Shown here one piece after another: positions 2,396 through 17,220 of a stretch of 17,365 nucleotides of DNA. The position numbers and the translations under genes were made by a program. This stretch comes from an uncultured Methanosarcinales archaeon. GTDB taxonomy: Archaea; Nanobdellota; Nanobdellia; Woesearchaeales; JAGVZT01. The stretch spans positions 1-17,365 of the forward strand of contig CAYQPU010000035.1 in assembly GCA_964419615.1 (NCBI GenBank), given 5' to 3'. Each line of letters opens with the position of its first letter. Position 1 is the first letter of the stretch. The notes beneath the pieces were generated by a model. The model made no database searches. It saw nothing but the letters and a program-made list of their open reading frames with translations, and was not told where the DNA came from.

Positions 2396-2419
2396 AGCTA
2401 TTACCAGTTAAGGCTATTG

Positions 2420-2638
2420 TTATTTATTCTTTAGGTCTAAATCAGCTTGGTCAACCAAAGCCTTAAACTCAGACCATTTCTCAACTGGAATTCTAACTCC
2501 TTGTTTTGTAAAGCCAGTGTATTTTTCAGTTGTAATGAATTTTCTTATTGTAAGTCCAGGTTTACCATCATATTCATCAATTCTGACTTTAATAGTGGTT
2601 GATTCTGTTAGTCCGATTTCTCCAATATCTTTTTCCAT
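2420..2638 (-). CDS. PC4/p15 (Sub1/YdbC-like) single-stranded DNA-binding protein
   Basis: 72 aa; IKVRIDEYDGKPGLTIRKF...FTKQGVRIPVEKWSEFK parallels the PC4 core (VsVreFkGk.lidIRey...p.kKGisL..eqW). A GGGGGGA tract precedes the ATG. Confidence 0.8.
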   Translation of the reverse strand: MEKDIGEIGLTESTTIKVRIDEYDGKPGLTIRKFITTEKYTGFTKQGVRIPVEKWSEFKALVDQADLDLKNK

Positions 2639-2697
2639 TTTCCCCCCAATACAATATATATAAATATATTATAAAATATTAAAAATTTAGGAAGTAT

Positions 2698-4443
2698 TTA
2701 TTTCTTTTGGGTTTTGTAAAGTTCTTGTACTTCTTTTATTGAAGTAATGTCTTGCAAGCCCCTGTCTTGTCTTAGTTTAGAAACACTTGGGAATCTTAGA
2801 GCATAGCCTGACTCATAGGTTGGAGATTTTTGAATTTCTTGGTAATCAATTTCGATTATTATTTCAGGCTTTACCTTTACAGTTCGACCAGTCTCACTTG
2901 TGACTAATGGTTTTATTAAATTAGTTATTTCTTGAAAGCTTAGGCCTTCTGATGCTTTTTCTTTTAATCCTGTTGAAGATTTACCAATTGTTAAAAGTTC
3001 ACCTTCATCATTAATGCAGGCAAGTGTGTAAGATGTTAACCATCCCGAGCGTTTTCCTTTACCCCATTCTGCAGCCACAATTACTAAATCCATGCTTTCC
3101 ATTGTGGGTTTTAGTTTTACCATGTAACCAACACGAGCTCCAGGTTTGTAAGGTGCATCAAGTTTCTTCATCATTACTCCTTCTTGTTCGTTTTCTAATG
3201 CTTCTTTGTAAAATTGTTCTACTTGTTTGGGATCAGATGTTACAATTTTCTTTGACAGAACTACCTTTTTGTTTATTTGCTTAGTAATTTCTTCTAAGAT
3301 CTTTCTTCGCTCTTTAAAAGGTGTGTCCAACATCTGTTTATTATTAAAGTATATTAAGTCAAATAGATTCAGTTCAACTGGAAGTTCTTTGGTCATCTGC
3401 TCTATATTGTATTTTCTTCTTATTCTTTGGGATACACTTTGAAATGGAAGATATTTCTTGGTTTCTGGGTTAAACCCTACTGCTTCTCCTTCAATTATAA
3501 AATTATTACCTTTTACATTTTCCTTTACATATTTTACAATGTTTGGGAACTGGTGTGTGACATTTTCCAATCTTCTGGTAAATATCTGGATTCTTTTGCT
3601 TTTGTGTATCTGCATTCTGAATCCATCATATTTGTATTCAACTTGACAGGGTTTACCAACTTTTTCAAAACCATCCTCAATGTTTTCTATTTTTAGAGAT
3701 AACATTACATTAATTGGATTACCAACCACAACTTCAACTTTGTCTAAATGTTTGATCCCTTGTTTTGCTTTTTTGATAACAATAGTTAGATCATTTGTGA
3801 GATCTAGTGCTTTTTGAGTTACATCACAATATTCATTGTATTTTTCTCTATCCTCTACCTTAATATCATTTGACTCGGGATCATAAGTGATGTTCAGTTC
3901 GTCTGCATAATATGCCCACACTATTGCATCTCTAAGCGAGCCTTTGCCCACACCAAATCTCATTTCTTCAAGTACTGTTCGAACAATATATTTTGCTTCA
4001 TTTGGCTTTGAGTTTGTTAACAGCTCAGCAATTAATGAAATTTTTCTGTCTATTGATCCAGATCCTTCTAATTTGGGAAGTTTTTTTAGATTGTTGAATA
4101 CTTTTTCTACTGAAAGATCAGAAGAAAATAGAGTTGATTGGCTTTTTGTTTTGATCATCTCAGATGCAACTAAACCAAGGTCTCCTTTTTGTTTCCATAA
4201 ATTTTCTATGTCACTTGCTGAGTTTCCAGATGCTTTTTGAATTGCTTTTACAACTATTTTTGAAGCTACACCTAGTTTGGAATTATCATACCCGGGAAAT
4301 ACTCTTCCATTTAATAGAAGCATGATTTTACCCAAATCTTTGTTTGTATGTTTTAAAAACTCAGAGATTATTGATGTTTTTTCTAGTCTTTTTGAGGTGT
4401 TTTCTAGCTTTTCATATACTTCAACAAGTTTTGAATATTTCAT
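2698..4443 (-). CDS. lig: ATP-dependent DNA ligase (archaeal type, DBD + NTase + OB)
   Basis: 581 aa; motif I EYKYDGFR (adenylated Lys), III IIEGE, IIIa LFDLIY, IV EGVMMK, V MVKLK, VI ALRFP; N-terminal DNA-binding domain. Confidence 0.97.
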   Translation of the reverse strand: MKYSKLVEVYEKLENTSKRLEKTSIISEFLKHTNKDLGKIMLLLNGRVFPGYDNSKLGVASKIVVKAIQKASGNSASDIENLWKQKGDLGLVASEMIKTKSQSTLFSSDLSVEKVFNNLKKLPKLEGSGSIDRKISLIAELLTNSKPNEAKYIVRTVLEEMRFGVGKGSLRDAIVWAYYADELNITYDPESNDIKVEDREKYNEYCDVTQKALDLTNDLTIVIKKAKQGIKHLDKVEVVVGNPINVMLSLKIENIEDGFEKVGKPCQVEYKYDGFRMQIHKSKRIQIFTRRLENVTHQFPNIVKYVKENVKGNNFIIEGEAVGFNPETKKYLPFQSVSQRIRRKYNIEQMTKELPVELNLFDLIYFNNKQMLDTPFKERRKILEEITKQINKKVVLSKKIVTSDPKQVEQFYKEALENEQEGVMMKKLDAPYKPGARVGYMVKLKPTMESMDLVIVAAEWGKGKRSGWLTSYTLACINDEGELLTIGKSSTGLKEKASEGLSFQEITNLIKPLVTSETGRTVKVKPEIIIEIDYQEIQKSPTYESGYALRFPSVSKLRQDRGLQDITSIKEVQELYKTQKK

Positions 4444-4465
4444 GATTTAGATGATTTTTTGGAGA

Positions 4466-4473
4466 TTTAAAAA
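4466..4473 (-). promoter_or_regulatory. Putative TATA box of lig (TTTTTAAA on minus strand)
   Basis: Lies at -30..-23 from the ATG at 4443, the same spacing as at several other genes in the window. Confidence 0.5.
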
Positions 4474-4495
4474 GGTTTTGAATTGAATAATAAAA

Positions 4496-4503
4496 TTTAT
4501 ATA
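4496..4503 (+). promoter_or_regulatory. Putative TATA box (TTTATATA) with purine-rich upstream BRE-like tract
   Basis: Consensus archaeal TATA box at -30..-23 from the ATG at 4526; divergent from the lig promoter. Confidence 0.6.
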
Positions 4504-4525
4504 CTCCGCAGTAATTACACTTTAT

Positions 4526-4903
4526 ATGAGTAAAAATCAAGATGCAGTGGAAGATTTTTTCACAACTGAAATGATTTATAGAGAAATACATGAGATAGAA
4601 GGCTTGAATCTCAACATACCTATTATAGTTGGTTTTATTTCAATTTCAGAGAAATGCCCAAGATTGGAATATAGAGCAATGATGTATTTTCCCAATTCAG
4701 GTGGATATAATCCAAAATTAGACATAATACCTAAAGTTGAAGCTGAAGGAAAAACAATTGATGATGCTTGCGTAGGTTTAATTGAAAAATTAGTTGAATA
4801 CCACTCATTTCTGGTTGAGGCTGAGAGTTTTGAAACTCAAAATCCAGATTACATAATGCACAAAAAATATCTTGATCTTATCATGGTTAAAGAACAAGAA
4901 TAA
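4526..4903 (+). CDS. Hypothetical protein, possible HicB-like fold
   Basis: 125 aa ORF with its own TATA box. AEGKTIDDACVGLIEKLVEY resembles the HicB/UPF0150 G.T.eEA...l.eai..y motif; the resemblance is weak. Confidence 0.55.
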   Translation: MSKNQDAVEDFFTTEMIYREIHEIEGLNLNIPIIVGFISISEKCPRLEYRAMMYFPNSGGYNPKLDIIPKVEAEGKTIDDACVGLIEKLVEYHSFLVEAESFETQNPDYIMHKKYLDLIMVKEQE

Positions 4904-5029
4904 CACTGGCTCTTATTCACTCCTAAAATATTAAGCTTACAATTTAACTCATTTTTTATTAAGTTAACACAAAGGGAATAAATATTAAAAAACCCAAAAA
5001 TATATATACACCTAGAATCTTGCATAGAT

Positions 5030-8000
5030 TTGAAAAAGAGTGTTAACATGACAAAGATTAACAAAATTGTGATGCATGGATTCAAATCTTTTGCCAAAAG
5101 AACTGAGCTTGTTTTTGGTGATCATTTTAATTCTGTTCTAGGTCCAAATGGATCAGGAAAATCAAATGTTCTTGATGCTATTTGTTTTGTTTTGGGAAGA
5201 TTGTCGTCTAAGAGTCTTAGGGCAGAAAAATCTGCAAATTTAATATATAATGGTGGGAAGAAAAAGAGCCCTTCAAAAAAAGCAGAAGTTTCTATTTATT
5301 TTGATAATTCGAATAAAACTTTTCCAAGTAATGAAAGTGAGATTAAGATTTCTAGGATTGTTAAAAAGACCGGACAATCTGTTTACAAGATTAATGATAA
5401 GACTTCAACAAGACAGCAGATTCTTGATTTAATGTCAGTTGCTAAGATAGATCCCGATGGATATAATATTATTTTGCAGGGAGATATTGTTAGGTTTGTT
5501 GAGATGTCAAGTGTTGAAAGAAGACAGGTATTAGAAGAGATATCAGGTATTTCTATTTATCAGGATAAGAAAAATAAAGCTATGAATGAGCTAGATAAGG
5601 TAGAAGATAGTTTAAAAGAAGCTGAGATTATTTTAACTGAAAGAGAGACTTATCTTAAAGAGCTTAGAAAGGAGAGAAACCAAGCTGCAAAATATAAAGA
5701 TATGAAAGATAAGATTGATAGCAGTAAAGCAACTGTGCTTCATAATCAAATTGAAGAGAAAAAAGAAGATAAAGAGAAGTTTGAGAATAGGAAAGAAAAA
5801 GATGAAGTCAAGCTTGAAAAGATTGGAAAGGAGATTGTTGATGTCAAAGATAAGATTCAAGGTGCAAGGAATGGTGTTTATGATCTGACTTCTGAGATTG
5901 AAAAAAAGGGTGAAAAAGAGCAAGTCCAGATTATGAAGAATCTTGAAGGTCTTAGAGTTGAGATAGCAACTAATAAAACTAAAATTGAGAATTTGCAGCA
6001 AGAGCTTGGAAAGATTGTTGTTAGAAGAGAACAATTAAAGACTGACAGCAAGGATATTTCTTCAAAAAATAGTGGTATTGAAAATAGGACTCAGGAACTT
6101 GAAAAGAAAAAAGTTCAAATTGACAGAGAATTAAATGATATTTTGAAAACTATTGATAATTTTAAGCAGAAGAGAAATTTGGGTGAGATTCCTCAAATTG
6201 AGGCTGAAGTTTCAGAGATTGACAATAATGTTGATGAATTACAAAAGAGTGTTCAAGAGCTTAGGGAAACTCAGCAGAATTTGCTTAGAGAAAAAGACAG
6301 AGTAGAGTACAAGATCTCAACTTTGGATGATCGTATTGATAAAGTTAAGGAAGTAGAAATTGAGCATAAAAAAGAGCTTGATGTTTTAAAGGATAAGAAA
6401 TCATCATTTAAGAAAATTACAGTGGAACTAAATAAGAACCTTGCAGATGATTCTAGTTTTGCAGCGCAAATTGGTAAGAAAAGACAAGACCTTGTGGATG
6501 TTGAACAAGAGTTGTCAAGACTTAAGACCAGATCAGTTGGTATTAGGGAAAGAATGTCTGCCAATATTGCTGTAAAAAAGATTATGGAGCAAAAGAAAAG
6601 CATTAAAGGTATTTATGGTACTGTTGGTGAGCTTGGAACTGTTGGTACAAAGTATTCTATGGCTTTGGAAATTGCAGCTGGAAGTAAAGTTAATAATGTT
6701 GTTGTTAAAGATGATAAGGTTGCAGCTAAGTGTATTGGCTACCTAAAAAAGAATAAACTTGGAAGAGCGACTTTTTTACCAATCAACAAAATCAGGAAAA
6801 TGAGCACTAATCCAGATGTTAAGAGATTAGCTAAATCAAGAGGTTGCAGTGGTATTGCGGTTGACCTTGTTGATTTTGATTCAAAGTTTAAAGTTATTTT
6901 TAATTATTTATTTTCAAATACTCTTGTAGTTGATGATATTAATGTTGCACGAAGGATTGGGATTGGCAGTGCAAGGATGGTCACATTAGAAGGTGATCTT
7001 GCTGAACGATCTGGTGCTATGACTGGTGGTTTTAGAAAAAGAAAATCAGGACTTGGTTTCCAGGAAAAAGAAACTTCTAAAGGTATTAATGAGCTTGAAT
7101 CTCAAGTTTTGGAATTACAAAATGTTGTAAGGGTCCTTTCTAAGAGAAGATTGGAGAATGAACAAGATATTATTGATCTTAGAAAGGAAAAAGCCAGCCT
7201 TGAAGGAGAAATTATTAAGATTGAAAAGAGTCTTCATCTTGAAAAAGGAGATGTAGGAGTTAATAAAAAGGAGAAGACTTTGCTAAGAGAAGAATTAAAA
7301 CAATTAACTAGAACTATTGAACAAAAGAATAAAGATATTCAAAAGTTTAATGGTGAATTTGCAAAGTTAAAAGCTAGTAAGCAAGTATTAAGAAGCAAGA
7401 TTGGAGATCTACAAAATCCGGAACTGCTTGCTGAGCTTAATACTTTTGAGGACAAGAAGAATGATCTTAAGGAAGAATTGCTTCAAACAGAGCACGAGAT
7501 TAAGTCAGCACATATGCAACTAAAGGAATTGCTTGGTCCTGAACTTGAAAAGATACAAAAGATCATTAAACAGCTTGATAAGGAAGAAGTTAGTTTTGAG
7601 AAAGATCTGAAAAAGACTAAGGAGTTTGTTAAAAAGCAAGAAGAGGAGCTAAAGCATAAAGAGAAGAAACAAAAGGCATTTTATTCTAAATTTAAGGAGC
7701 TGTTTAATGAGAGAGACAAGCTAAATAAGAAGCAAAGAGATCTTGAGGTAAAAAAGGCCAGGCTTGAGGATCAAAGCAGAGACATTGAGATGAGAATCAA
7801 TAATATTGCTTTGAAAAATGCTGCTGTGACTGCTGAGTTAAGTGGTCTTGAAAAAGAGTATGAACAATTCCATGGTGTGCCAATACTGCGACAAAGAAAT
7901 ATTTCAGCGATTAAGGCTGAGATCACTCGGTTTGAAAATTTGGTTTTAGCTATGGGTAATGTAAATCTTAAAGCTTTGGAGATTTATGATAGTGTTCATA

Positions 8001-8542
8001 AGGAGTATGAGCATTTGCTAAAGAAAAAAGATTTACTTGAAAAAGAAAAAGAAGATGTTATGAAATTAATGGATGAGATCGAAGGTAGAAAAGCTGAGTT
8101 ATTTATGAAGACTTTTGATAGTGTTAATGAACACTTTATGCAGATTTTTAATCAACTGACTGCTAAAGGTAGGGCTCATTTAGCATTAGACAATCCAAAG
8201 GATCCATTTGATGGCGGTGTTAGGATTAGAGTTAAGATTACTGGAAGAAGGTTTATGGATATCAGAAGCTTGTCTGGTGGTGAGAAGACTTTGACTGCTT
8301 TGGCTTTGATCTTCTCTGTTCAAGAACATGATCCTGCTTCATTTTATGTTTTAGATGAAGTTGATGCTGCACTTGATAAGCACAATTCTGAGAAGTTAGC
8401 TAAGCTTGTTAGAAAGTATTCTGATCATGCTCAATATATTATTGTGACCCATAATGATGCTATTATTTCTGAAGCAGATAATCTTTATGGTGTCTCAATG
8501 GATGAACATTCTATTAGTAAGGTTGTTAGTTTGAAGATTTAG
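5030..8542 (+). CDS. smc: Chromosome segregation protein SMC (start TTG 5030 or ATG 5048)
   Basis: Walker A GPNGSGKS, Q-loop IILQGD, two long coiled coils around a hinge (GIYG...GRATFLP...GDL...GAMTGG), signature LSGGEK, Walker B/D-loop YVLDEVDAALD, H-loop IVTH. Confidence 0.98.
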   Translation: MKKSVNMTKINKIVMHGFKSFAKRTELVFGDHFNSVLGPNGSGKSNVLDAICFVLGRLSSKSLRAEKSANLIYNGGKKKSPSKKAEVSIYFDNSNKTFPSNESEIKISRIVKKTGQSVYKINDKTSTRQQILDLMSVAKIDPDGYNIILQGDIVRFVEMSSVERRQVLEEISGISIYQDKKNKAMNELDKVEDSLKEAEIILTERETYLKELRKERNQAAKYKDMKDKIDSSKATVLHNQIEEKKEDKEKFENRKEKDEVKLEKIGKEIVDVKDKIQGARNGVYDLTSEIEKKGEKEQVQIMKNLEGLRVEIATNKTKIENLQQELGKIVVRREQLKTDSKDISSKNSGIENRTQELEKKKVQIDRELNDILKTIDNFKQKRNLGEIPQIEAEVSEIDNNVDELQKSVQELRETQQNLLREKDRVEYKISTLDDRIDKVKEVEIEHKKELDVLKDKKSSFKKITVELNKNLADDSSFAAQIGKKRQDLVDVEQELSRLKTRSVGIRERMSANIAVKKIMEQKKSIKGIYGTVGELGTVGTKYSMALEIAAGSKVNNVVVKDDKVAAKCIGYLKKNKLGRATFLPINKIRKMSTNPDVKRLAKSRGCSGIAVDLVDFDSKFKVIFNYLFSNTLVVDDINVARRIGIGSARMVTLEGDLAERSGAMTGGFRKRKSGLGFQEKETSKGINELESQVLELQNVVRVLSKRRLENEQDIIDLRKEKASLEGEIIKIEKSLHLEKGDVGVNKKEKTLLREELKQLTRTIEQKNKDIQKFNGEFAKLKASKQVLRSKIGDLQNPELLAELNTFEDKKNDLKEELLQTEHEIKSAHMQLKELLGPELEKIQKIIKQLDKEEVSFEKDLKKTKEFVKKQEEELKHKEKKQKAFYSKFKELFNERDKLNKKQRDLEVKKARLEDQSRDIEMRINNIALKNAAVTAELSGLEKEYEQFHGVPILRQRNISAIKAEITRFENLVLAMGNVNLKALEIYDSVHKEYEHLLKKKDLLEKEKEDVMKLMDEIEGRKAELFMKTFDSVNEHFMQIFNQLTAKGRAHLALDNPKDPFDGGVRIRVKITGRRFMDIRSLSGGEKTLTALALIFSVQEHDPASFYVLDEVDAALDKHNSEKLAKLVRKYSDHAQYIIVTHNDAIISEADNLYGVSMDEHSISKVVSLKI

Positions 8543-9109
8543 TTAACTAGAATCCAATTTAACAGGATTTTGATTATAGTATCCCAATGCAATTTTAACC
8601 TCTCCCAAAAAAGGATATGTTCTTACACCAATGTAAGTTCCATCTGGTGAGTTTTGAAAATCAAGAGATTCCCAGGAAAGGGTTGAACCATTTTTTGGGA
8701 TATAATCAATTACTGATTCTTGTAAGTTTTCTGGAGATATTACTACAAAGTTATGGCCATGTTGTGCTTTGCTAAAAGCTAAAGCTTTTGCTACCTGGTA
8801 TAAAAATTCAAGATTTGCACCTTCTCTTCTAAACATTAAATTAGTGCAATCCAAATACATTTCACCATGAATGGTTAAATGATCAAATGATCTTCCTGGA
8901 ACCCTCTCACAATGAAGATATGCAGAATCTTCAATTCTATCTTCAAGCTCATAATTAATCCCAGTTTGTTTTAGTATTTTCTCCGCTTTTCTAATTTCCT
9001 TACTAGTCATTTCTGTTAGTTTATATAAATGAGGCATTCTATCTTCTAGGTGGTCTGTCATAGGATTTTTTCCTATTAACAACACTGGTAGATCTTTTCC
9101 TTTGTTCAC
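8543..9109 (-). CDS. Hypothetical protein (ORFan); GTG start, alternative ATG at 9061
   Basis: 188-codon ORF filling the gap between smc and the GT4 gene; no recognisable motif. Confidence 0.6.
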   Translation of the reverse strand: MNKGKDLPVLLIGKNPMTDHLEDRMPHLYKLTEMTSKEIRKAEKILKQTGINYELEDRIEDSAYLHCERVPGRSFDHLTIHGEMYLDCTNLMFRREGANLEFLYQVAKALAFSKAQHGHNFVVISPENLQESVIDYIPKNGSTLSWESLDFQNSPDGTYIGVRTYPFLGEVKIALGYYNQNPVKLDSS

Positions 9110-9207
9110 GATAGTATTGTAAGAATTACTTCAATAATAAAAAGATTGCTACTTCAAATAGGAAATATTAAAAATAACTTTTTTATCAGACTGCTGTGAC
9201 AAAAACT

Positions 9208-10332
9208 TCACATTTTTTCTAGAATCTCAACTATCTGTTCTGAAGTTGTTTTCCAGTTGAAGTTTTCTTCTACTGTTTTTCTGCCATTTAGTGATAGAAG
9301 TTTTCTTAGTTTTTTACTTTTGATTAATTTTTCAAGATGTGTTGTTAGTCCTTCTACATCTTTTTTACTAAAGATTAATCCATTGTATCCATCACTGATT
9401 GCTGTTACTGCTAAACCTACTGGCGTTGTTATGACTGGTATTCCTGATGACATTGCTTCTAGTGTAGATAGGCCTGTTGTTTCTGTTAATGATGGCATTA
9501 CAAAGATGTCCATTGCACCATAATAGTCTGTTACGTTTTCTACAAAACCAGTTACCTTAATGTTATGTTTTCTTGAGTATTTTTTATAGTGTTCACCATC
9601 ACCGACTAAGACTAATAGTGCATTTTTGTCATTGAGATTTTGAAATGCATCAACCAATGTATGAATATCCTTTTCGTCACTTAGTCTACCGCAGTATCCT
9701 ATGACTGTTTTTTCTGGATCTATTCCAAGTTTCTTTTTTGCAATTCTTTTAGATCTTACTGGTTGGAATTTTTCCAGATCAACTCCCAGTTTTACTGTTT
9801 GTTTTTTTGCCTTTATTCCAGCCTTGTTTAATACATCTATTAATGAATCAGATGGAACCATGATTAAGTCACACATATTACATAAGAATCTCATTTGGAT
9901 TTTGACAAATTCGGATGTAAGCTTTTGAAACCATTTCGGTCCTCCTATGATTAAAGATAATTGTTCCCAACCGATTTGATGAAAGTACATAGCAACTGGT
10001 TTTCCGAGTAGTTTTGCGAGTATTATGGATGATGCTCCAAGATATGGCAAAGATTGTATAAAAACAAGGTCTGATTTCTTGACATCTTGCATTAAGTCGT
10101 GTGTTGGTATTGGTGGATGATAGTCACAGCCAGCATCAATTTTTAAGAATTTGACAATTGGGTAGAATTTAATTGAAGCTCCAAAAAAATGTATGAAGTG
10201 CCCACCATAGTTTGGAGCAAGGACTTTTACTTGGAACTTGCCAACTAAGTCTGGAACCATTTTTTCTGAGAATCTCATTACCCCATCTACTTTTGGGTAG
10301 AATGTGTCCAGTACATAAAGTATTTTTTTCAT
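9208..10332 (-). CDS. Glycosyltransferase family 4 (GT-B, retaining)
   Basis: N-terminal DTFYPKVDGV, GYCGRLSDEKD donor-binding motif, and PSLTETTGLSTLEAMSSGIPVI (EX7E). Confidence 0.93.
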   Translation of the reverse strand: MKKILYVLDTFYPKVDGVMRFSEKMVPDLVGKFQVKVLAPNYGGHFIHFFGASIKFYPIVKFLKIDAGCDYHPPIPTHDLMQDVKKSDLVFIQSLPYLGASSIILAKLLGKPVAMYFHQIGWEQLSLIIGGPKWFQKLTSEFVKIQMRFLCNMCDLIMVPSDSLIDVLNKAGIKAKKQTVKLGVDLEKFQPVRSKRIAKKKLGIDPEKTVIGYCGRLSDEKDIHTLVDAFQNLNDKNALLVLVGDGEHYKKYSRKHNIKVTGFVENVTDYYGAMDIFVMPSLTETTGLSTLEAMSSGIPVITTPVGLAVTAISDGYNGLIFSKKDVEGLTTHLEKLIKSKKLRKLLSLNGRKTVEENFNWKTTSEQIVEILEKM

Positions 10333-10976
10333 CGTATTTTAAAAAACCTCTCTGCAAACTTTACATGATGTGAATGCCCATGAACTGCAGCCTTTGCATA
10401 TATGTTTCCATACAAAATGATTAATGACGACCACTGGCTGGCAAAGCACTTTAAGGCATTTATTTTTTTTGCAAATGTACTTGATATATCAACATATAAT
10501 CTAGGGTATTCTATTCTGTGAAAATCAAGCAGGTTCCAAACATCAAACATATAGACTTCTGTTTTAAATTTGTTTTCATCAACAATGTCCAAAACAATTT
10601 TGGTTACTGCTTTGTGGTCTCGATGTGGATCAAGTAAATTATGAGTAAAGATTTTTGTTGGTTTTAATCTTTTAATTGTTGTTGCAAGTTTTTGTTTTAT
10701 CTTATTTTTTTCTGTCTCTTCTGCAAATTTTCCTTCTTCCAGTCCGTAATATAAAGATCGTTTATATCCCAATACTTCTCTTGCAGCTTCTGCTTCTTTT
10801 TTCCTCATCTTGGTTGATACATGTTTTTTTAGCCAATGATGACTTAATTCACCATATGAGAATCTAATAACAGATACATTCTTGCCTTCTTCTATGTATT
10901 TTGCTATTGTCCCACCCACTCCTAAAACAGCATCATCTGGATGCGCAGCAATAACAAGTATGTTTTCTTTAGGCAT
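10329..10976 (-). CDS. PIG-L/LmbE family N-acetylglucosaminyl deacetylase (MshB/BshB-like); likely start ATG 10976
   Basis: ILVIAAHPDDAVLGVGGTI (HxDD metal motif), RKKEAEAAREVLG, THNLLDPHRDH (HxDH), VDIS...KKINALKCFASQ, AERF. ATGA overlap with the GT4 gene. Confidence 0.92.
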   Translation of the reverse strand: MPKENILVIAAHPDDAVLGVGGTIAKYIEEGKNVSVIRFSYGELSHHWLKKHVSTKMRKKEAEAAREVLGYKRSLYYGLEEGKFAEETEKNKIKQKLATTIKRLKPTKIFTHNLLDPHRDHKAVTKIVLDIVDENKFKTEVYMFDVWNLLDFHRIEYPRLYVDISSTFAKKINALKCFASQWSSLIILYGNIYAKAAVHGHSHHVKFAERFFKIR

Positions 10977-11027
10977 ATTAAATATCAATCTAGAAATGGT
11001 TAATATATGTTTTGGTTAATAATAAAA

Positions 11028-11035
11028 TTATTAAA
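11028..11035 (+). promoter_or_regulatory. Putative TATA box (TTATTAAA) of the inositol monophosphatase gene
   Basis: At -30..-23 from the ATG at 11058. A divergent TATATTAA (11007..11000, minus strand) sits -31..-24 from the PIG-L ATG. Confidence 0.5.
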
Positions 11036-11057
11036 GAACAATACTATAATTTTTAAT

Positions 11058-11843
11058 ATGTACAAAAAAGAGCTTAAAACCGCAATAAAAGCTGCTAAAG
11101 AGGCAGGTAAATTTCTGTTAGAACATAGGAAAGATGTTGAATTACTTAAAACAAAGAGCACTTTTAAGGATATTGTGACTGATGCTGATCTTGGTTCTGA
11201 GGATATTATTGTTGATATGATTAAACAGGAGTTTCCTGATGATAATTTTTTGACTGAGGAAGCAGGGGGAGAGATTTCCAAAGAGAGGTTATGGATTATT
11301 GATCCATTGGATGGGACTAGAAATTATGCTAATGGATTGTTTTATTTTTCTGTTGTTGTGGCTTTTTATGATAATGGAACTAAAGTTGGAGTTGTTTATG
11401 CGCCTGTGCTTGGTGAGTTGTTTTATGCAACAGAAGGAAAAGGGGCTTTTTTGAATGATGAAAAGCTTGTTATGAAGAATCCAGATCAAGCTTTAGCTGA
11501 TTGTGTTATTAACACGGGTTTTTGGTATTATAAGGATGATGAGCTTGACAGTTTGTTAAAGATTTTCAAAAAAGTATTGAGCAAAGCTACAGATGTTGTT
11601 AGATATGGTTCAGCAGCTCTAGATTTGTGTAATGTTGCTGCAGGTAGATTAGGTGGTTTTTTTGAACCTGGACTTAAGCCTTGGGATGTTGCTGCTGGAT
11701 CTCTTATTATAACAGAAGCTGGAGGAGCGGTTTCTGGATATGCTAAAGAGCTTGAGGTTCTAGATCCAAGAGAAGGGATAATTGGATCCAAAAACAAACA
11801 GATTATGGACGAGTTAAAAATAATTATTAATTCTGGTTTATAA
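11058..11843 (+). CDS. suhB: Inositol monophosphatase family protein (SuhB-like); likely start ATG 11058, not 11007
   Basis: VTDAD, FLTEE, WIIDPLDGTRNY, GSAALDLC.VAAG and WDVAAG motifs are all intact. Confidence 0.93.
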   Translation: MYKKELKTAIKAAKEAGKFLLEHRKDVELLKTKSTFKDIVTDADLGSEDIIVDMIKQEFPDDNFLTEEAGGEISKERLWIIDPLDGTRNYANGLFYFSVVVAFYDNGTKVGVVYAPVLGELFYATEGKGAFLNDEKLVMKNPDQALADCVINTGFWYYKDDELDSLLKIFKKVLSKATDVVRYGSAALDLCNVAAGRLGGFFEPGLKPWDVAAGSLIITEAGGAVSGYAKELEVLDPREGIIGSKNKQIMDELKIIINSGL

Positions 11844-12010
11844 AGCATTCCCAAGTTATCTTTATAAAAACTAATTACGACTAGAATCAATTACATGAGT
11901 AAATGCATATTACTTATTATAAAAGAATTATTGAGAGTACTATAATTGCCATATAATTTAATTAAGCAATCATCTTTATTTAAGCTTTTTTTTCAGATTA
12001 TTTATAAAAG

Positions 12011-12017
12011 TAAAAAA
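12011..12017 (-). terminator. Possible oligo-T terminator downstream of tRNA-Phe
   Basis: The minus strand reads TTTTTT then ACTTTT immediately after the discriminator base; oligo-T tracts act as archaeal terminators. Confidence 0.35.
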
Positions 12018-12032
12018 GTGGGACTGCTGGGA

Positions 12033-12181
12033 CTTTCATAACCTTTTACACAATTGACCAAAGGCTGCACATTTATGTGCATGAGTGGTGATTATCTTGT
12101 GTTAAGATACATCACCATATGTGACTGAAAGTCACATTACTTTTGGTCAAGCTTTTGCGCGCAAAGCGCGGAAAAGATTGA
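12033..12181 (-). other. 149-nt tRNA intron at T-loop position 59/60
   Basis: BHB motif: exon UUCA (54-57) pairs with intron UGAA (12038-12035); 3-nt bulges AA^U and AG^U; flanked by the T-stem and an intron basal stem AAUCUUUU/AAAAGGUU (one C-A mismatch next to the bulge). Confidence 0.88.
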
Positions 12182-12203
12182 TTTGAACCCAGGACACCAC
12201 GGT

Positions 12204-12234
12204 TTCCTCGCTTCAAGCTTTTTTGCTTTAAGCT
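12204..12234 (-). other. 31-nt tRNA intron at canonical position 37/38, relaxed BHB
   Basis: AGCTTAAAGCAAAAAAGCTTGAAGCGAGGAA; removing it restores the 7-nt anticodon loop CUGAAGA. Confidence 0.88.
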
Positions 12235-12295
12235 CTTCAGCCGTGTGCTCTCCCAGTCTGAGCTACAGTCCCACAATGATACTGGATTAAAAAAC

Positions 12296-12303
12296 TATAT
12301 TTA
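12296..12303 (-). promoter_or_regulatory. Putative TATA box of the tRNA gene (TAAATATA)
   Basis: At -31..-24 from mature G1 (12272). Confidence 0.5.
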
Positions 12304-12314
12304 TTACTTTCGGT

Positions 12315-12773
12315 CTATTCAACAGTTTCTTCTTCAATTGCCAGATCTTCTTGTTCAACTCCAATATCTTCTACTGGAACTGGTTTTTCAGGATCTAGTT
12401 TTTTTTGTTCTGGCTCTGCTGGAGCTTCCTTTGGTTTTTCTTCTTCAGCCGGAGCTTCCTCGGCTGCTGGCTCTGGCGCTTCACCTGCACCAACAACATT
12501 AAGAGTACCATTTCTACCAGTTGAAACTTGCATTTCTCCTTGGTATTCTTTGGCCCAGCCTTCTTTTAGCTCAATTTTGTCTCCCATGTTTACTTTGTCA
12601 ACGTCTTCGTTCCAAAGGCTCATCTTAGCACTGCCTGTTTCATCTTTGACTGTGACTGTACAGACTCTGCCAGTTTTGCCGAATTTTGAGAATTCTCTTG
12701 TATCTCCTTTTTCAACAACATCTGCTACTAAGATGTCAACTGCTGTATTTGGTTTTAATTCTCCTATTTTCAT
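12315..12773 (-). CDS. ssb: Single-OB-fold ssDNA-binding protein (crenarchaeal SSB/RPA-like) with acidic Pro/Ala/Glu-rich tail
   Basis: KIGELKPN...DETG...LW...W..Y.G.MQV closely parallels Sulfolobus-type SSB. Stacking aromatics W54, W73, Y77; the last ~55 aa are acidic and low-complexity. Confidence 0.87.
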   Translation of the reverse strand: MKIGELKPNTAVDILVADVVEKGDTREFSKFGKTGRVCTVTVKDETGSAKMSLWNEDVDKVNMGDKIELKEGWAKEYQGEMQVSTGRNGTLNVVGAGEAPEPAAEEAPAEEEKPKEAPAEPEQKKLDPEKPVPVEDIGVEQEDLAIEEETVE

Positions 12774-14230
12774 TTTTTTACCTCCTTAAACATAATTTCT
12801 TTGTTTAATAATTTCTTAAGCGTTTTGTTAAGATCATCAATTTTGATTCTTGCTTGCTCTGTTGTGTCCCTATCCCTGATTGTGACTGAATTATCCTTTA
12901 GTGTGTCATAGTCAATTGTTACACAATAAGGTGTTCCAACTTCATCTTGTCTTGCATATCTTCTACCTATGCTTCCTCCTTTATCATAAAAACTGTTAAA
13001 ACAGGTTTTGATTGCACTATATACTTCTTTTGCTTTTTCTCCAACTCCGTCTTTGTTAACTAACGGAAAAACAGCAACTTTAGTTGGTGCAAGTTTTGGA
13101 TCAAGCTTTAATACAATATTTCCTCTTTCCTTGTCATCACAATAAGCATCACTTATGAAAACCAAAAATGCTCTGTCAACGCCTTGTGAAGGTTCTGCTA
13201 CAACATAAGGTACAACTTTGTTGTTATCTTCTTGTATGAATAATGAAAAATCTTTTTTTGAAAATTTCATGTGTTCTTTTAAGTCAAAGTCAGTTCGGTT
13301 CGCCATTCCTTGCAGCTCTTTCCATCCAAATGAGAAATTGTATTCAAGATCCCAAGTATCAAGTGCATAATGACTTTTTTCTGTCTGCACATGCTGCCGG
13401 ATTCTGAAGTTATCTGGTGCTGCGCCTAAACCTACAAACCATTTATGTTCAATTGCCAGCCAGTAGGCATGCCATTGGGTTTGAATTATTTTCTTGTCAA
13501 GAGCTTGTTTAATTGTCATTTTTTGCCCATCTTCTTTTTTGGATTGCATTTCATCTGACAAGATAATTATCTCATGATCCATTACTTCCTTTATAAACGG
13601 ACAGTTGTCAACATTTTTTGGATGGATAAAATATTCAATTTCCATTTGTTCAAATTCTCTGCATCTAAATAAGAAGTTTCTTGGTGAGATTTCGTTTCTA
13701 AATGCTTTTCCAATTTGAGCTATACCAAATGGAAGTTTTAATCTTGAGGTTTCAACTATCTGTTTAAAATCAACAAACATTATTTGAGCTGTTTCAGGTC
13801 TTAAGTAAGCGGTCATGGACTCTTCCTTTATTGGGCCAACCTGCGTTGTGAACATTGGGTTAAACTCCCCTTTGTCTTCATAATCTCCACCACATTTTTC
13901 ACACTTTGCTTTTCCTACTTCAAATTTGTCAAGCTTGTTTTTCAAGCCACATTTTTTGCATACTACTGCAACATCAATAAAGCTTCCTACATGTCCTGAT
14001 GCTTCCCACACTTTTGGATGAGTGATTATACTTCCATCTATCCCAACAATGTCATCTCTATCCTGAACATGAAATTTCCACCAAGAATCCTTAATATTTT
14101 TCTTAAGTTCTGTTCCAAGCGGCCCGTAATCAAAGAATCCGGCATATCCCCCATATATCTCAGAAGAAGGAAAGACTAGCCCTTTCTTTTTACAAAATGT
14201 TGCCAGATCCTCTATACTAATTGTTGACAT
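12770..14230 (-). CDS. glyS: Glycine--tRNA ligase, alpha2 (homodimeric) type
   Basis: YLRPETAQ, QIGKAFRNEISPRNFLFRCREFEQMEIEYF, SHYA, GWKELQGMANRTDFDL, EPSQGVDR, and the anticodon-binding domain IGRRYARQDEVGTPYCVTID. A CxxC...CxxC insertion is present. Confidence 0.97.
   Translation of the reverse strand: MSTISIEDLATFCKKKGLVFPSSEIYGGYAGFFDYGPLGTELKKNIKDSWWKFHVQDRDDIVGIDGSIITHPKVWEASGHVGSFIDVAVVCKKCGLKNKLDKFEVGKAKCEKCGGDYEDKGEFNPMFTTQVGPIKEESMTAYLRPETAQIMFVDFKQIVETSRLKLPFGIAQIGKAFRNEISPRNFLFRCREFEQMEIEYFIHPKNVDNCPFIKEVMDHEIIILSDEMQSKKEDGQKMTIKQALDKKIIQTQWHAYWLAIEHKWFVGLGAAPDNFRIRQHVQTEKSHYALDTWDLEYNFSFGWKELQGMANRTDFDLKEHMKFSKKDFSLFIQEDNNKVVPYVVAEPSQGVDRAFLVFISDAYCDDKERGNIVLKLDPKLAPTKVAVFPLVNKDGVGEKAKEVYSAIKTCFNSFYDKGGSIGRRYARQDEVGTPYCVTIDYDTLKDNSVTIRDRDTTEQARIKIDDLNKTLKKLLNKEIMFKEVKK
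12780..12785 (-). promoter_or_regulatory. Shine-Dalgarno GGAGGT for ssb, inside the glyS 3' end
   Basis: The minus strand reads AAGGAGGTAAAAAAATG; the ssb ATG overlaps the glyS TGA. Confidence 0.7.
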
Positions 14231-14262
14231 AGAACGGGTTTATATATAATTGTTTAAATAAT

Positions 14263-15117
14263 TTATTGTTTTTTACTGCCCAGATCAATTATTAAGTAAT
14301 CTAAAGAACTAGCATGTATTATGGGGATGATTTTTGAGTCTTCTTCTAAATGAAGACCTCCTACTGTTCCCATGCATATTCCCTCTACTTGTGATGTGCA
14401 ATCAACCATGGTTACTCCCATTGAGACTTCCCTATCAGCATTGTATTCATCAATCTGCTTTTTATTCTCTCGTATTCTTAATGCATATCCGTTTGCTTTA
14501 AGATATTTATCTGGAATTTCCTTTGACAATCCCTCAACCTGATCATATAGATGATAGCACGAGGGTGCAACATTGGTGCGCAGGAATAGATATAGATCAT
14601 TATCAATTTCTTGTAAAGCTTTGTATTGTTCAGTAGACATTTTTGATTGATCGTCAATTAGTGCGTCTTCAACAGAACACTTTATGTCAGCAACAATTTT
14701 ACTTAAATCTTTCATAATCTGGTTATTCACTTTTTCTCCGCCAATTAGATCTATACCTACAAAAGTTGTGCTTGGGCTCTTACTATACCAATCAATCATA
14801 GCACTTGCTACATATCCCATTCCAAGATCATATTTTGCACGTTGATAAAAAGTTTCAATGGAGATTTCACCTTCCTGAAAAGAAGTAATATCATCTGATG
14901 CATCAAGCTCTTGTGCTTTGGCATAATTAAGTGTTCTCCCAGATTCAATTCCTTCACAAAAGAAGTAAACTGGTTTTAATCCGGTGAAAAGCGATTCAGG
15001 AGAGGCTAATGTTCGTAAAAAATGTTCTTCTGCTGTAACTATTAGCTGAGGGTTTTCCCCTCTTTGAGCGATTATTCTGGCTCCCTTTGCCAACATCTCT
15101 TCAATTACGTCTTGCAT
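14263..15117 (-). CDS. Hypothetical protein, probable EreA/ChaN/TIKI-TraB-like superfamily hydrolase
   Basis: Motif order LIVTAEEH (GExH-like), FFCEG, FVGID and C-terminal GTVGGLHL (vGxxH) matches that superfamily. It has its own TATA box TTTTAAAT at 15147-15140. Confidence 0.5.
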   Translation of the reverse strand: MQDVIEEMLAKGARIIAQRGENPQLIVTAEEHFLRTLASPESLFTGLKPVYFFCEGIESGRTLNYAKAQELDASDDITSFQEGEISIETFYQRAKYDLGMGYVASAMIDWYSKSPSTTFVGIDLIGGEKVNNQIMKDLSKIVADIKCSVEDALIDDQSKMSTEQYKALQEIDNDLYLFLRTNVAPSCYHLYDQVEGLSKEIPDKYLKANGYALRIRENKKQIDEYNADREVSMGVTMVDCTSQVEGICMGTVGGLHLEEDSKIIPIIHASSLDYLIIDLGSKKQ

Positions 15118-15180
15118 AAGTAGAAGTGAAGAAGTTTGTATTTAAAACACTTTCTTATTTTCTTACTAAAAAGTAACATA

Positions 15181-16383
15181 TTATTGTTTTTTTAGCCAAG
15201 CTAGCTCATCTTTATCAAGTTTAAAGTATTCAGAAATTTCTTTAGCTATTTGCTTGTTTTGTTTGAGCATGAATGTGATATATGGATGTGTCTGTTGGAT
15301 AGTGGTTTTAGCCGATGTATGCATTTTTTGGCCAATTTTGTGGGCTATTGCCTTTCTTTTCTTTCTTGTCTGACTAATTCTCCAGAGCTTAAATATTCTA
15401 GAGCTAGGTTTGTACTGTATGAATTTCTTGTATTTTTCTTTTTTTGCTAGCGCAACACCTGCTGTCATTAGTGCTTTTTGATAGACTAAAAATCTCCAGT
15501 ATTGCCATCTTCGAATTCTCCGCTTGAATATGTCTGCTTTTGATAATGATTCATAGGCTTTACATAGTTCTTTAGGATTTGTGTATTCTTTTGGCAAATT
15601 TTCATCAATCCAAAGGAAACTTCGATCTAGATCTTCATCAACATTATCAAGTGCAGAGGAAGCAATTTCAATTTTTGTTGATTTGAATATTCGCAGTAAA
15701 GCATCCAACATACTTTCTGTTTTGTTTCGGTCATCAAGTTTTTCAACATCTTTACTTACTGATGTTAAAGCTATACTTTGAAAGTCATTGATTGATGCTC
15801 TAAAGTCTCCTCCTGCACGTCTTGCAATCTTAATAAGAGTTTTTTCATCCACTCCAAGTTTTTCCTGATCTGATATTTTCTGGAGTAGATTTTTTATTGA
15901 TAGATAGGATGGAGTTCTAAGTTGGATTATTTCACATTTTCTTCTAAGTGTGGAGAATTTTGAATCATAGATATCATTTGATGTTAGAACCAAAGGATGA
16001 CTTGTTTTTGCAATGACCTTGATTAATTCGGCTACACCTCCACGATCGTGCCTACCAGATAAACCATCAATTTCATCAACTAAAATTAATTTTCCCTTGT
16101 TAAATAAACTCATTTGTTGAGAGGCAGAACCTACAATTGAATTAATTCCAGCTTTGTTTCTAAAGTCAGATGCATTAACCTCTAATATTTCAAGGTTAAG
16201 ATCTCTTGCTAACGCATGTACAATACATGTTTTCCCAACTCCAGTCTGACCGTACAAAAGCAATGCTTTCTTTTTCTGCTTTTTGAAACTAAGAACATAA
16301 TTTTTTAGTTGTTCAACTGCCTTATTGTGCGCATGCACGTCTTTTAAAGTCTTTGGGCAGTATTTTATTGTCCACGGTAACAT
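15181..16383 (-). CDS. rfcL: Replication factor C large subunit
   Basis: PWTIKYCP (RFC box II), Walker A GQTGVGKT, EVNASDFR, Walker B LVDEIDG, GDFRASINDFQ, WIDENLP, and ADIF..RI.R.QYW.F. Confidence 0.95.
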   Translation of the reverse strand: MLPWTIKYCPKTLKDVHAHNKAVEQLKNYVLSFKKQKKKALLLYGQTGVGKTCIVHALARDLNLEILEVNASDFRNKAGINSIVGSASQQMSLFNKGKLILVDEIDGLSGRHDRGGVAELIKVIAKTSHPLVLTSNDIYDSKFSTLRRKCEIIQLRTPSYLSIKNLLQKISDQEKLGVDEKTLIKIARRAGGDFRASINDFQSIALTSVSKDVEKLDDRNKTESMLDALLRIFKSTKIEIASSALDNVDEDLDRSFLWIDENLPKEYTNPKELCKAYESLSKADIFKRRIRRWQYWRFLVYQKALMTAGVALAKKEKYKKFIQYKPSSRIFKLWRISQTRKKRKAIAHKIGQKMHTSAKTTIQQTHPYITFMLKQNKQIAKEISEYFKLDKDELAWLKKQ

Positions 16384-16440
16384 GGTTTTTTGTAATTAAT
16401 GTGTGTTTAATAATGTTTGCAAGCATATTTTATATTCTAT

Positions 16441-17220
16441 TTAAACTGGCTGAAACTCCTTGTCTCCATAAATATCCAAGTATCTTTTCCAGATTCCTAT
16501 ACAAACTTTGTTTTTTAAGCACACTTTACATCTATCCAGTTTAACACAAGATCTTTCTAAAGATCCGAACAAGTTGGTATTATTATCTGTTTTTTTATTT
16601 TGACCAACTTGTTTTACATAAGGAACTGTCTTAGAATATGCACATAAATAGTTTTTAAGAGTCTGATCTGATAAGTGTTGCTCTGGCCTCATGTAATTAA
16701 ACATAATACTCTTTAAGGGATATTTCCCAATTAATTTCACAAATGCTGGAATCTCTTTATAATTTAATTGATTTATTACAAAAGTAACAGTACAAAAAGC
16801 TCCAAGTTCACATGCATTGCTTATTCCCTGTAATGCTTGGTTAAAGGAGTCTTTTGTTTGAGTTAGTTTATCATGTGTTTTTGAATTTGATCCGTGTAAT
16901 GAGAATGAGATTTTATCAAGACCCGCTTTGATAATTTTTTCTGCAAATTTCTTATTTGAGAGCATTCTGCCATTTGTTTCTAATGATATTTTTTTATATC
17001 CTGCTTTTTTGGCAAGCGATATTAACTGTATAGCATCTTTCCTGATTGTAAATTCTCCACCAAGAAACTCGATTAAATCATAATCAGAAGCATTATTAAC
17101 TATTGCACTGGCTACTTCTTCTGTAGACCTGTTGTTTTTTGATTTGTTGAAACTATTAGCACTACAAAAAACACAGTTATTGTTACAACTAAAACCAACG
17201 AACATGAGTAATGTAGACAT
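16441..17220 (-). CDS. Radical SAM enzyme, HxsC-like, with C-terminal Cys cluster
   Basis: CNNNCVFC (CxxxCxxC), GGE motif (FLGGEFT), ETNGR, SLHGS...HD.LT, and C-terminal Cx5Cx2Cx5C (CVKLDRCKVCLKNKVC) followed by GIW..Y...YG..EF.PV. Confidence 0.88.
   Translation of the reverse strand: MSTLLMFVGFSCNNNCVFCSANSFNKSKNNRSTEEVASAIVNNASDYDLIEFLGGEFTIRKDAIQLISLAKKAGYKKISLETNGRMLSNKKFAEKIIKAGLDKISFSLHGSNSKTHDKLTQTKDSFNQALQGISNACELGAFCTVTFVINQLNYKEIPAFVKLIGKYPLKSIMFNYMRPEQHLSDQTLKNYLCAYSKTVPYVKQVGQNKKTDNNTNLFGSLERSCVKLDRCKVCLKNKVCIGIWKRYLDIYGDKEFQPV

Follow-up and report, generated by a model that had tools for sequence, protein, structure and literature searches.

The window analysed here, a 17,365-nt contig (GenBank CAYQPU010000035.1, assembly GCA_964419615.1) from an uncultured archaeon deposited as Methanosarcinales and placed by GTDB in the Woesearchaeales, carries on its minus strand a tRNA-Phe(GAA) gene with a 149-nt insert in the T-loop (12033–12181). 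The insert is predicted, from its fold and from the joining of the exons, to be a spliceable bulge-helix-bulge (BHB) intron at position 59/60. Its body is probably a copy of a modular, structured element that is present many times over and has colonised RNA genes in this DPANN genome of the Woesearchaeota type. A preliminary description of the window had recognised the elaborate fold of the intron and offered two interpretations, a functional circular RNA or tRNA mimic on the one hand, and on the other an element resembling a miniature inverted-repeat transposable element (MITE), hidden in a site from which it is spliced out. The reading as a mobile element in a safe site is substantially right, whereas that as a functional circular RNA or tRNA mimic is unsupported. 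The genome (G000) comprises 1.48 Mb in 64 contigs, with a GC content of 33.5%, and is 99% complete.

The tRNA-Phe gene is 254 nt long (12019–12272; all features of this locus are on the minus strand) and consists of three exons and two introns. Exon 1 (12235–12272) supplies the 5′ strand of the acceptor stem, the D-arm, the 5′ strand of the anticodon stem and the anticodon loop up to G37 (CU-GAA-G), in agreement with the intron-free orthologues of two relatives, G002 and G005. It is followed by a 31-nt intron at the canonical 37/38 position (12204–12234), with a boundary uncertain by 1 nt. Exon 2 (12182–12203) comprises the 3′ strand of the anticodon stem, the variable loop, the 5′ strand of the T-stem (CTGGG, 12192–12188) and the T-loop, and ends in CTGGG-TTCAAA. 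After the 149-nt intron, exon 3 (12019–12032) contributes T60, the 3′ strand of the T-stem (CCCAG, 12031–12027), the 3′ strand of the acceptor stem and the discriminator A (T-CCCAG-CAGTCCC-A), and is succeeded by a T-run. The interrupted gene is missed by both ARAGORN and Rfam. When 12272–12235, 12203–12182 and 12032–12019 are joined, the resulting 74-nt sequence is called by ARAGORN as tRNA-Phe(GAA), and its exon pattern is that of the uninterrupted orthologues in G002 and G005; removal of the inserts thus restores a canonical tRNA, and the intron boundaries given in the preliminary description hold. A pattern search of the genome for the 5′ half of tRNA-Phe returned this single match, and both inserts must therefore come out if the cell is to read Phe codons. 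Two further metagenome assemblies contain the locus without a single base difference, which argues that it is not an assembly artefact. The contig occurs in the ENA SUTE22-1 assemblies and in JGI 3300009008.

The fold of the 149-nt intron is much more stable than its composition would predict. RNAfold gives −50.4 kcal/mol, compared with a shuffle mean of −28.3 kcal/mol (sd 3.5; z = −6.33), and none of 200 shuffles was as stable. All helices described previously were recovered at their positions: the basal stem AATCTTTT/AAAAGGTT (12179–12172/12047–12040), which is also the inner helix (h′) of the BHB; a GC hairpin, H1 (12170–12158); a 9-bp repeat, TTGACCAAA/TTTGGTCAA (12150–12142/12062–12054), closing a four-way junction (12054–12150); and, within this junction, the hairpins H2 (12137–12119), H3 (12117–12086) and H4 (TGCACA/TGTGCA, 12081–12066). 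The hairpins have loops of 3–5 nt and stems of 6–13 bp, and the whole folds as a stalk topped by a four-way junction. The description of nearly every base as paired overstates the extent of pairing, which ranges from 64% of bases (counting the helices listed above) to 71% (minimum free energy structure, MFE).

At the splice junction, CTGGG-TTCA-(AA↓T)-..AATCTTTT can pair with AAAAGGTT-A-TGAA-(AG↓T)-CCCAG (arrows, splice sites), to form a helix, a 3-nt bulge, a 4-bp helix, a second 3-nt bulge and a helix. The central 4-bp helix is supplied on the exon side by TTCA of the T-loop (12187–12184) and on the intron side by TGAA (12038–12035), and the second bulge, A-G↓T (12034–12032), holds the 3′ splice site. 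Even when folded without constraint, the T-arm plus intron has an MFE with the T-stem, the 3-nt AGU bulge and the helix between TTCA and TGAA. With the basal stem as inner helix, the complete hBHBh′ conformer lies 3.7 kcal/mol above the MFE (−55.1 vs −58.8 kcal/mol), and it competes with a local hairpin formed by CTTTT and a nearby AAAAG. Two end modules frame the structure. The 5′ module (12141–12181) runs from T through CAATCTTTT and the GC hairpin to AAAAGCTTGACCAAAAG, and the 3′ module (12035–12047) contains the 3′ strand of the basal stem and the TGAA that pairs with the T-loop.

A BLASTN search of the intron against its own genome, one of the checks proposed in the preliminary description, detected more than 12 homologues, all in other tRNA genes and at the T-loop site, with the Phe copy 77–88% identical to copies on contigs C10, C32, C7 and C21. 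A covariance model of the 78-nt core (12080–12157; linker, H2 and H3), here called R1, scores 90.8 bits on the Phe copy and brings the number of copies in G000 to 20. These are distributed over 14 T-loop introns, three D-loop introns, two introns within or close to the anticodon loop (of which one is at 37/38 of tRNA-Thr) and one RNase P RNA gene; none of the 20 is intergenic. The dispersed copies suspected earlier thus exist, and each lies within a tRNA or RNase P gene.

The setting of these copies is a tRNA gene complement that is extensively interrupted. A strict script of our own identified 39 tRNA genes in G000, compared with 10 by ARAGORN, whose isotypes for genes with several introns were judged unreliable and were used in a few simple cases only. 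An intron at 59/60 is present in 31 of the 39 genes, with lengths from 14 to 191 nt. The longest gene measures 448 nt, and a single gene may have as many as three introns; a cluster at C13:17267–23684 comprises nine tRNA genes. After in silico removal of the T-loop introns, ARAGORN called 30 of the 39 genes instead of 10. Twenty of the 31 T-loop introns are at least 82 nt long; these start with (T)CRAYCTTTT-hairpin-AAAAGYTYGAYCAAAA, and all except one finish in ...GAAAG. The other 11 measure 14–43 nt, lack a long structured body and are apparently spliced. The 5′ module of the Phe intron is common to the 20 long T-loop introns and occurs as well, with other cargo, in T-loop introns of metagenome-assembled genomes (MAGs) labelled Woesearchaeota, Aenigmatarchaeota, Micrarchaeota and 'Methanosarcinales' (among the matches listed). 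The scan for T-loop/intron junction patterns that gave these examples returned mostly chance bacterial matches, and only the archaeal MAGs were used.

Comparison of the copies suggests a modular construction. The ends are near-symmetric, with the arrangement hairpin plus GAYCAAAA ... TTTTGRTC plus hairpin; each module consists of xxxCTTTT-loop-AAAAGxxx and then GAYCAAAA, and at the 3′ end this order is mirrored. A check for terminal inverted repeats gave the same picture of mirror-symmetric ends, each a hairpin, the 3′ hairpin being degenerate in the Phe copy. The interior is less constant. H1 and H4 are variable or absent among copies, and H4, restricted to the longer ones, is the least conserved helix. 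The four-way junction is found in nine of the 14 long copies in the alignment, where C-G pairs have changed to A-U in a compensatory way. H4 and the 3′ strand of the stem closing the junction are entirely absent from five copies of 111–121 nt, and the cloverleaf appearance of the Phe intron is therefore not universal in the family. H3 of the GGTGAT type defines a subfamily of five in G000 (Phe, C32, C43, C21a and C10), with one member in the sister species G001. The Phe copy is itself a mosaic, whose nearest paralogue shifts by segment between copies on C16 (83%), C43 (83%), C32 (82%) and C10 (90–100%).

Two further observations concern cargo. A second subfamily of T-loop introns, 82–92 nt long, has the same 5′ module and a ATGGCGTCTTCGACTTTGTCGAATCCGC-like hairpin interior in place of H2 and H3; in G000 its members are found at C13:17281–17372, C2:50639–50727, C21:21365–21451, C32:19835–19921 and C13:23361–23442. 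Separately, G000:C40:9200–9480 (locus L041) contains two tandem units, each with a hairpin like that of the 5′ module (CATCTTTTT..AAAAAGCTGGACCAAAAA and CAAACTTTTTT..AAAAAAGTTTGATCAAAAAA) and continuing with a hairpin that carries a CTCACTT(T/C)..TTCG loop; no recognisable tRNA surrounds the C40 units, and they have no Rfam match.

The hairpins of the core are maintained by compensatory change. Among the 14 aligned long copies of G000, evaluated against 500 shuffles and against slid alignments, H2 shows pairing in all cells (100%) and double substitutions in five of its seven pairs, and nine of the 14 pairs of the H2/H3 core show double changes. The outer stem of H3 alternates between GGTGAT/ATCACC and GTGGCC/GGCCAC types. 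The stem closing the junction is paired in 93.8% of cells, with TTGACC/GGTCAA exchanged for TCGAAC/GTTCGA between copies, and H4 in 62.7%. In all, 21 pairs carry double changes; none of the 500 shuffles attained the observed values, and the slid alignments were only 34–47% paired. Order-wide, an alignment of 63 R1 matches has double changes at 13 of 14 pairs and is 93% paired compared with 29–47% when slid, figures biased towards structure, as the alignment was fitted to R1 and includes matches on both strands. The ratio of G-U to A-C in the stems (32:15) weakly favours pairing at the RNA level of the sense strand. As an observation apart, the antisense of H2 (TGAAAGTCAC; 12119–12137) resembles the 3′ splice junction TGAAAG↓TCCCA (12028–12038), with 91% complementarity over 11 nt, and copies bearing a GGGAC-TTTCA-GTCCC hairpin match this junction exactly.

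Relatives differ in the introns of this gene. tRNA-Phe(GAA) is uninterrupted in G002 and G005, has only a 37/38 intron in G007 and only a 59/60 intron of ~20 nt in G004. In G001, a sister species of the same genus (a public MAG labelled Candidatus Woesearchaeota archaeon SuakinDeep_MAG79_5), the 59/60 intron is ~70 nt long and unrelated to the 149-nt intron save for the terminal TTGAAAG needed for the BHB. On this comparison of sequences, the 149-nt intron is not vertically inherited with tRNA-Phe. The smaller intron of the gene behaves similarly, being wholly unlike the 31-nt intron at the same site in G001 and absent from G002, G004 and G005, and both tRNA-Phe introns are therefore subject to turnover.

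The same holds for the wider tRNA set, where all 12 orthologous pairs compared between G000 and G001 keep an intron at 59/60 that differs in cargo and length (e.g. 129 vs 30, 168 vs 43, 88 vs 28 and 82 vs 140 nt). Some cores are reciprocal best matches between the two genomes at 75–86% identity, and vertical descent is therefore indicated for those copies; others are not. A recent event can be seen in G001, where two tRNAs, one of class II with acceptor GAGGGGA and the other with acceptor GGGCTCA, carry T-loop introns that are ~95% identical over ~190 nt (L230:366–551 and L231, minus strand). The first ~100 nt are identical, and the identity spans from GGGTTCAAA in the T-arm to TCCCT in the T-stem, the remaining sequences of the two genes being unrelated. 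The G000 orthologues of this pair are only 74–87% similar to them, and the copy event must therefore be younger than the species split. Judged by these sequences, introns are copied recently between tRNA genes, and cargo is replaced at a fixed site between sister species.

The copy outside tRNA genes is located in the RNA of an essential ribozyme. Rfam places an archaeal RNase P RNA at G000:C3:47511–47823 (minus strand, 101 bits), with the true 5′ end ~110 nt farther upstream, and the element lies at ~47771–47904 of a gene covering ~47511–47934 (minus strand; locus L040:572–705). It adds ~130 nt at P3, directly 5′ of the universal GAGGAAAGUCC, with the layout CGACCTTTT-AAG-AAAAGGTCG-AACAAAAC, H2, H3, H4, GTTTTGAT-CAAACTTTT-CTT-AAAAGTTTG; this allele is known from one assembly. 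Five relatives (G001–G004 and G007) have RNase P RNAs of 286–302 nt with a short P3 (CAAACAGTTAAATTGTTTG in G001, CAAACCTTGTTTG in G003) adjoining the universal TGAGGAAAGTCC, and outside the insert the RNAs of G000 and G001 are ~90% identical. The insertion site is not a proper BHB, as the 5′ bulge is 1 nt and the outer helix is missing, and cutting there would remove the essential conserved region I (CR-I); for these reasons the insert probably stays in the ribozyme as an enlarged P3. The native P3/CR-I (CAAAC...GTTTG-TGAGGAAAGTCC) resembles the intron ends beside exon 3 (CRAYC...GGTTA-TGAAAG↓TCC), and this likeness of sequence suggests that ectopic recombination was guided into the RNase P gene. 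A related module is found at the same RNase P position in G099, from another family. RNase P RNA matches across 151 genomes of the order range from 230 to 516 nt; this survey includes three unpublished genomes (G118, G127 and G138), on which no claim rests.

Beyond G000, the distribution of the element is patchy. The order has more than 130 families with genomes of 0.6–2.7 Mb, and of the 151 genomes sampled from it, 13 gave R1 matches. Within the family of the window, G000 has 20 copies, G001 nine, G002 three weak, G007 two weak and G004 one borderline, with none in G003 and G005. One G002 copy lies upstream of a tRNA and another, a T-loop intron of 55 nt, has H2 alone, and one G007 copy lies downstream of a tRNA. 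The relatives in G079, of another family, number ~8–10 (loci L201–L209, e.g. L201:272–433); these are 150–160 nt long, ~90% identical and situated in intergenic regions of 450–790 nt, with no T-loop motif near them. The flanks of the G079 copies share GCATC/AGCC on the left (slash, junction), and ggCTGA occurs ~30 nt to the right in four of them. Copies in G064 sit at contig ends. A reversed relative in G067 (L059:1380–1662) lies just upstream of an intact tRNA and is preceded by a 15-nt duplicate of the tRNA 5′ end (GCGCCTGTAGCCTAG), which, judged from the sequence, looks like an integration or recombination scar. As to viral carriage, a pattern scan of IMG/VR returned 38 loci with R1 scores of only 22–27 bits, which were taken as chance, and no convincing copy was seen among them.

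Together these results suggest the following model. The end modules would zip into a stalk that places the two splice sites in a BHB with the universally conserved TTCA of the T-loop, and a cargo of covarying hairpins (H2, H3 and, in some copies, H4) would top the stalk as a four-way junction. Half of the splice signal (...TGAAAG) is brought along by the element itself, which should therefore be spliceable in any tRNA T-loop, and the dominance of 59/60 would follow from the central BHB helix that this terminus can form with the TTCA of every T-loop. Spread and replacement may take place in DNA, when RNA genes with introns undergo ectopic recombination or gene conversion and the conserved T-arm and the end modules serve as the homology. 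After transcription, an alpha-type EndA would cut at the BHB, and RtcB would join the exons and probably circularise the intron as well. The extensive pairing is then best regarded as the element's own architecture, presumably selected for a compact and splice-competent long insert rather than for a function specific to tRNA-Phe.

The required enzymes are encoded. G000 has one endA gene, on contig C3, for a single 219-aa alpha-type subunit with N and C domains, and RtcB is present (538 bits). No RVT_1 reverse transcriptase was found in this 99%-complete genome; retro-transposition of the excised intron is thus unsupported, and the absence speaks for the DNA-level route. One gene for a Y1 transposase of the IS200/IS605 type is present (G000:C57:1018–1368, minus strand, 115 bits), together with a fragment (C2:79974–80084). 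It was considered as a partner and set aside: its flanking hairpins are unlike the element's modules, and the right-end hairpin, CCCAACC-TTTA-GGTTGGG, shares only a short CAACC/GGTTG arm with them. A TnpB/omega-RNA link was likewise dropped, with no TnpB above cut-off in G000. No autonomous partner with the same ends was thus identified through Y1 or TnpB, the two transposase-related families searched. Around the copies in T-loops, D-loops and RNase P RNA, no direct repeats indicative of a target-site duplication were seen; their flanks are the inverted TTCA/TGAA of the BHB.

Several points weigh against this explanation. Splicing, circularisation and the abundance of the excised intron are predictions from sequence. 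The exon homology available for recombination is only ~10 nt of T-arm per side, and ordinary gene conversion would not obviously replace a whole intron with its ends precisely at the splice junctions. Copies in D-loops, anticodon loops and RNase P RNA, and those near or outside tRNA genes in G002, G007 and G079, need another route of arrival. The strong H2/H3 covariation across distant families could point to a function beyond harmlessness, such as a protein-binding site, and the asymmetry of G-U over A-C is too weak to decide between RNA- and DNA-level selection on the hairpins. A bolder and less probable reading is that the introns represent an undescribed class of self-propagating non-coding 'intron element', with its own half of the BHB signal, a structured cargo and a dedicated mechanism of spread in DPANN tRNA genes and, occasionally, RNase P RNA. 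It could work through the splicing machinery, or through an as yet unrecognised nuclease acting on the symmetric hairpins at the ends. On this reading, the likeness of the end hairpin plus ...TGAAAGTCC to P3/CR-I of RNase P RNA might reflect the element's origin or a shared protein partner.

A rival explanation is a DNA element driven by a transposase, either a MITE or a palindrome-associated element of the IS200/IS605 or repetitive extragenic palindromic (REP) type, whose enzyme reads the hairpin ends and whose insertions survive only at spliceable or otherwise tolerant sites in RNA. The RNase P copy, with two perfect 9-bp hairpins (CGACCTTTT/AAAAGGTCG and CAAACTTTT/AAAAGTTTG) flanked by the mirrored AACAAAAC/GTTTTGAT, has the appearance of such an element, and R1 matches both strands of this copy and of copies in other families of the order. 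The intergenic G079 copies, those at contig ends in G064, the patchy occurrence over the order and the Y1 gene on C57 are in keeping with it. The left junctions, however, have no motif in common (TTCAAA↓T, CTGG↓C and TTCCG↓C; arrow, junction), target sites are not duplicated, and the confinement of 20 of 20 G000 copies to tRNA or RNase P genes is unlike a non-specific transposon. Replacement of introns bounded exactly by the splice sites is also atypical for a MITE, and neither the hairpins flanking Y1 nor TnpB provides a matching partner. We therefore regard transposase-driven spread as unlikely. As regards the MITE-like element proposed in the preliminary description, the dispersed copies, symmetric ends, differing occupancy in sister species and the RNase P insertion largely bear it out; the missing duplications, the restriction to structured RNA genes in G000 and the lack of a transposase with matching ends set it apart from a classical MITE.

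A benefit to the host appears less probable still, and doubtful on present grounds. The excised and probably circular intron, or the module within its precursor, would bind a protein or RNA and be kept in many tRNA genes for dosage; possible roles are those of a ribonucleoprotein chaperone, a ligand of an RNase P protein through a P3-like hairpin, or a modification guide. RtcB circularises archaeal introns and is encoded here, H2/H3 pairing persists through complete turnover of sequence in distant families, and H3 contains a conserved AAGAU(A/G) stretch. The module is tolerated or retained at P3 of RNase P in G000, as is a related one in G099, and there is a likeness between the native P3/CR-I of RNase P RNA in the order and the end hairpin CAAAC...GTTTG with its continuation TGA(GG)AAAGTCC. 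Against a beneficial RNA, cargo is freely exchanged for unrelated sequence between sister species, as in tRNA-Phe, and a copy number of 0–20 within one family, with G003 and G005 devoid of copies, is consistent with a dispensable element. Nor does the intron in the window match Rfam 15 at gathering score, and permissive thresholds gave no family either; among the related loci, only RNase P and tRNA were matched. The best C/D match reached 21 bits, compared with a gathering score of 60, and had no D box; the C-box-like GTGATG is confined to one subfamily of copies, and a box C/D sRNA was rejected. A tRNA mimic fared no better, the Rfam tRNA model matching only the exon side (12169–12272, 16 bits) and the four-way junction on its stalk having no tRNA-like features. 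It is with these results that the functional circular RNA and the tRNA mimic of the preliminary description lose their support.

That the introns are ordinary and immobile, alike through ancient common ancestry of T-loop introns and structured only as the endonuclease requires, we consider very improbable. The constancy of the 59/60 site in 12 of 12 orthologous pairs would fit, as would the 5′ module, CRAYCTTTT-hairpin-AAAAGCTYGA, in T-loop introns of Aenigmatarchaeota- and Micrarchaeota-labelled MAGs (among the matches listed). Immobility is contradicted by the near-identical introns in two unrelated G001 tRNAs, which are closer to each other than to their G000 orthologues, and by the unrelated intron in the sister tRNA-Phe. 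The growth of the GGTGAT-type subfamily to five in G000 compared with one in G001 and the insertion in RNase P RNA are further evidence against it. The endonuclease, moreover, needs a BHB only, and the 11 short T-loop introns apparently splice without such structure. A colonising structured intron element that spreads between RNA genes at the DNA level is the explanation we favour.

The genes around tRNA-Phe (2–17220) form an ordinary archaeal housekeeping set. They include genes for an ATP-dependent DNA ligase (2698–4443), SMC (5030–8542), a GT4 glycosyltransferase (9208–10332), an inositol monophosphatase (11007–11843), an OB-fold protein similar to single-stranded DNA-binding proteins (12315–12773), a class II aminoacyl-tRNA synthetase read as prolyl-tRNA synthetase (12770–14230), an RFC-like AAA+ ATPase (15181–16383) and a radical SAM protein (16441–17220).

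The closest precedent is that of the Thermoproteales, for which transposition of tRNA introns has been inferred (Fujishima et al. 2010, Mol Biol Evol 27:2233, cited through PMC4090602). As in the Thermoproteales, where according to the same text the BHB is thought to define the permissible sites and recent gain at the DNA level has been inferred with the mechanism unknown, highly similar introns occur in tRNAs of different identity within one genome (both G000 and G001), and close relatives have another intron, or none, at the orthologous site. The present case differs in its DPANN host, in the symmetric end modules with a covarying multi-hairpin cargo, in the use of 59/60 in 31 of 39 genes and in the RNase P copy. 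The introns described here are 80–190 nt long. Those of the Thermoproteales are reportedly short.

DPANN archaea are known for marked disruption of tRNA genes, for incomplete tRNA sets from standard predictors and for alpha4-type EndA (Kaneta et al. 2018, PMC5829648), and G000 is similar to the genomes discussed there in having a single alpha-type EndA and only 10 tRNAs found by ARAGORN. Homologous families of long structured introns, their turnover and insertion into RNase P RNA are not described in the accessible portion of that account. Like MITEs, REP sequences, palindrome-associated transposable elements (PATE) and IS200/IS605 derivatives, the element is small, non-coding and multi-copy, with hairpin ends, a patchy distribution and copies of high identity. 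Unlike MITEs, REP and PATE, it is without target-site duplication or a transposase with matching ends, its G000 copies are confined to RNA genes and its boundaries are splice sites. With the C/D intron of euryarchaeal pre-tRNA-Trp (PMC4090602) it has in common that it is a long archaeal tRNA intron with conserved internal structure; unlike that intron, it lacks conserved C, D, C′ and D′ boxes, occupies 59/60 rather than 37/38, and is multi-copy and interchangeable. Circular tRNA introns of archaea and the tRNA intronic circular RNAs (tricRNAs) of metazoans (PMC4536317) are comparable in that an RtcB-type ligase is encoded and the stalk would favour circularisation, the introns here being known from their sequences. 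No description of this DPANN intron family or of an RNase P insertion was found in the literature searched, many subscription papers lying outside that search.

The route by which protein-spliced tRNA introns enter genes has yet to be established, and the Thermoproteales, the one well-known precedent, come without a mechanism. A 2026 census of Asgard tRNAs found no general route for the arrival of introns and concluded that 'how they arrive remains open' (bioRxiv 10.64898/2026.10.13.758758). G000 and G001 offer an unusually clean system in this respect, with one dominant site (59/60), introns long enough for their ancestry to be traced, a copy event at ~95% identity edged at the T-arm, replacement of cargo between congeneric species and an insertion in an essential ribozyme gene. 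Since these five features combine, donor, recipient and tract boundaries can be measured directly. The case also explains why standard finders recover about one-quarter of the tRNA genes identified in this DPANN genome. Transposing tRNA introns are a kind already known; what is new is a DPANN family of structured BHB introns, one that makes the question of how BHB introns spread tractable.

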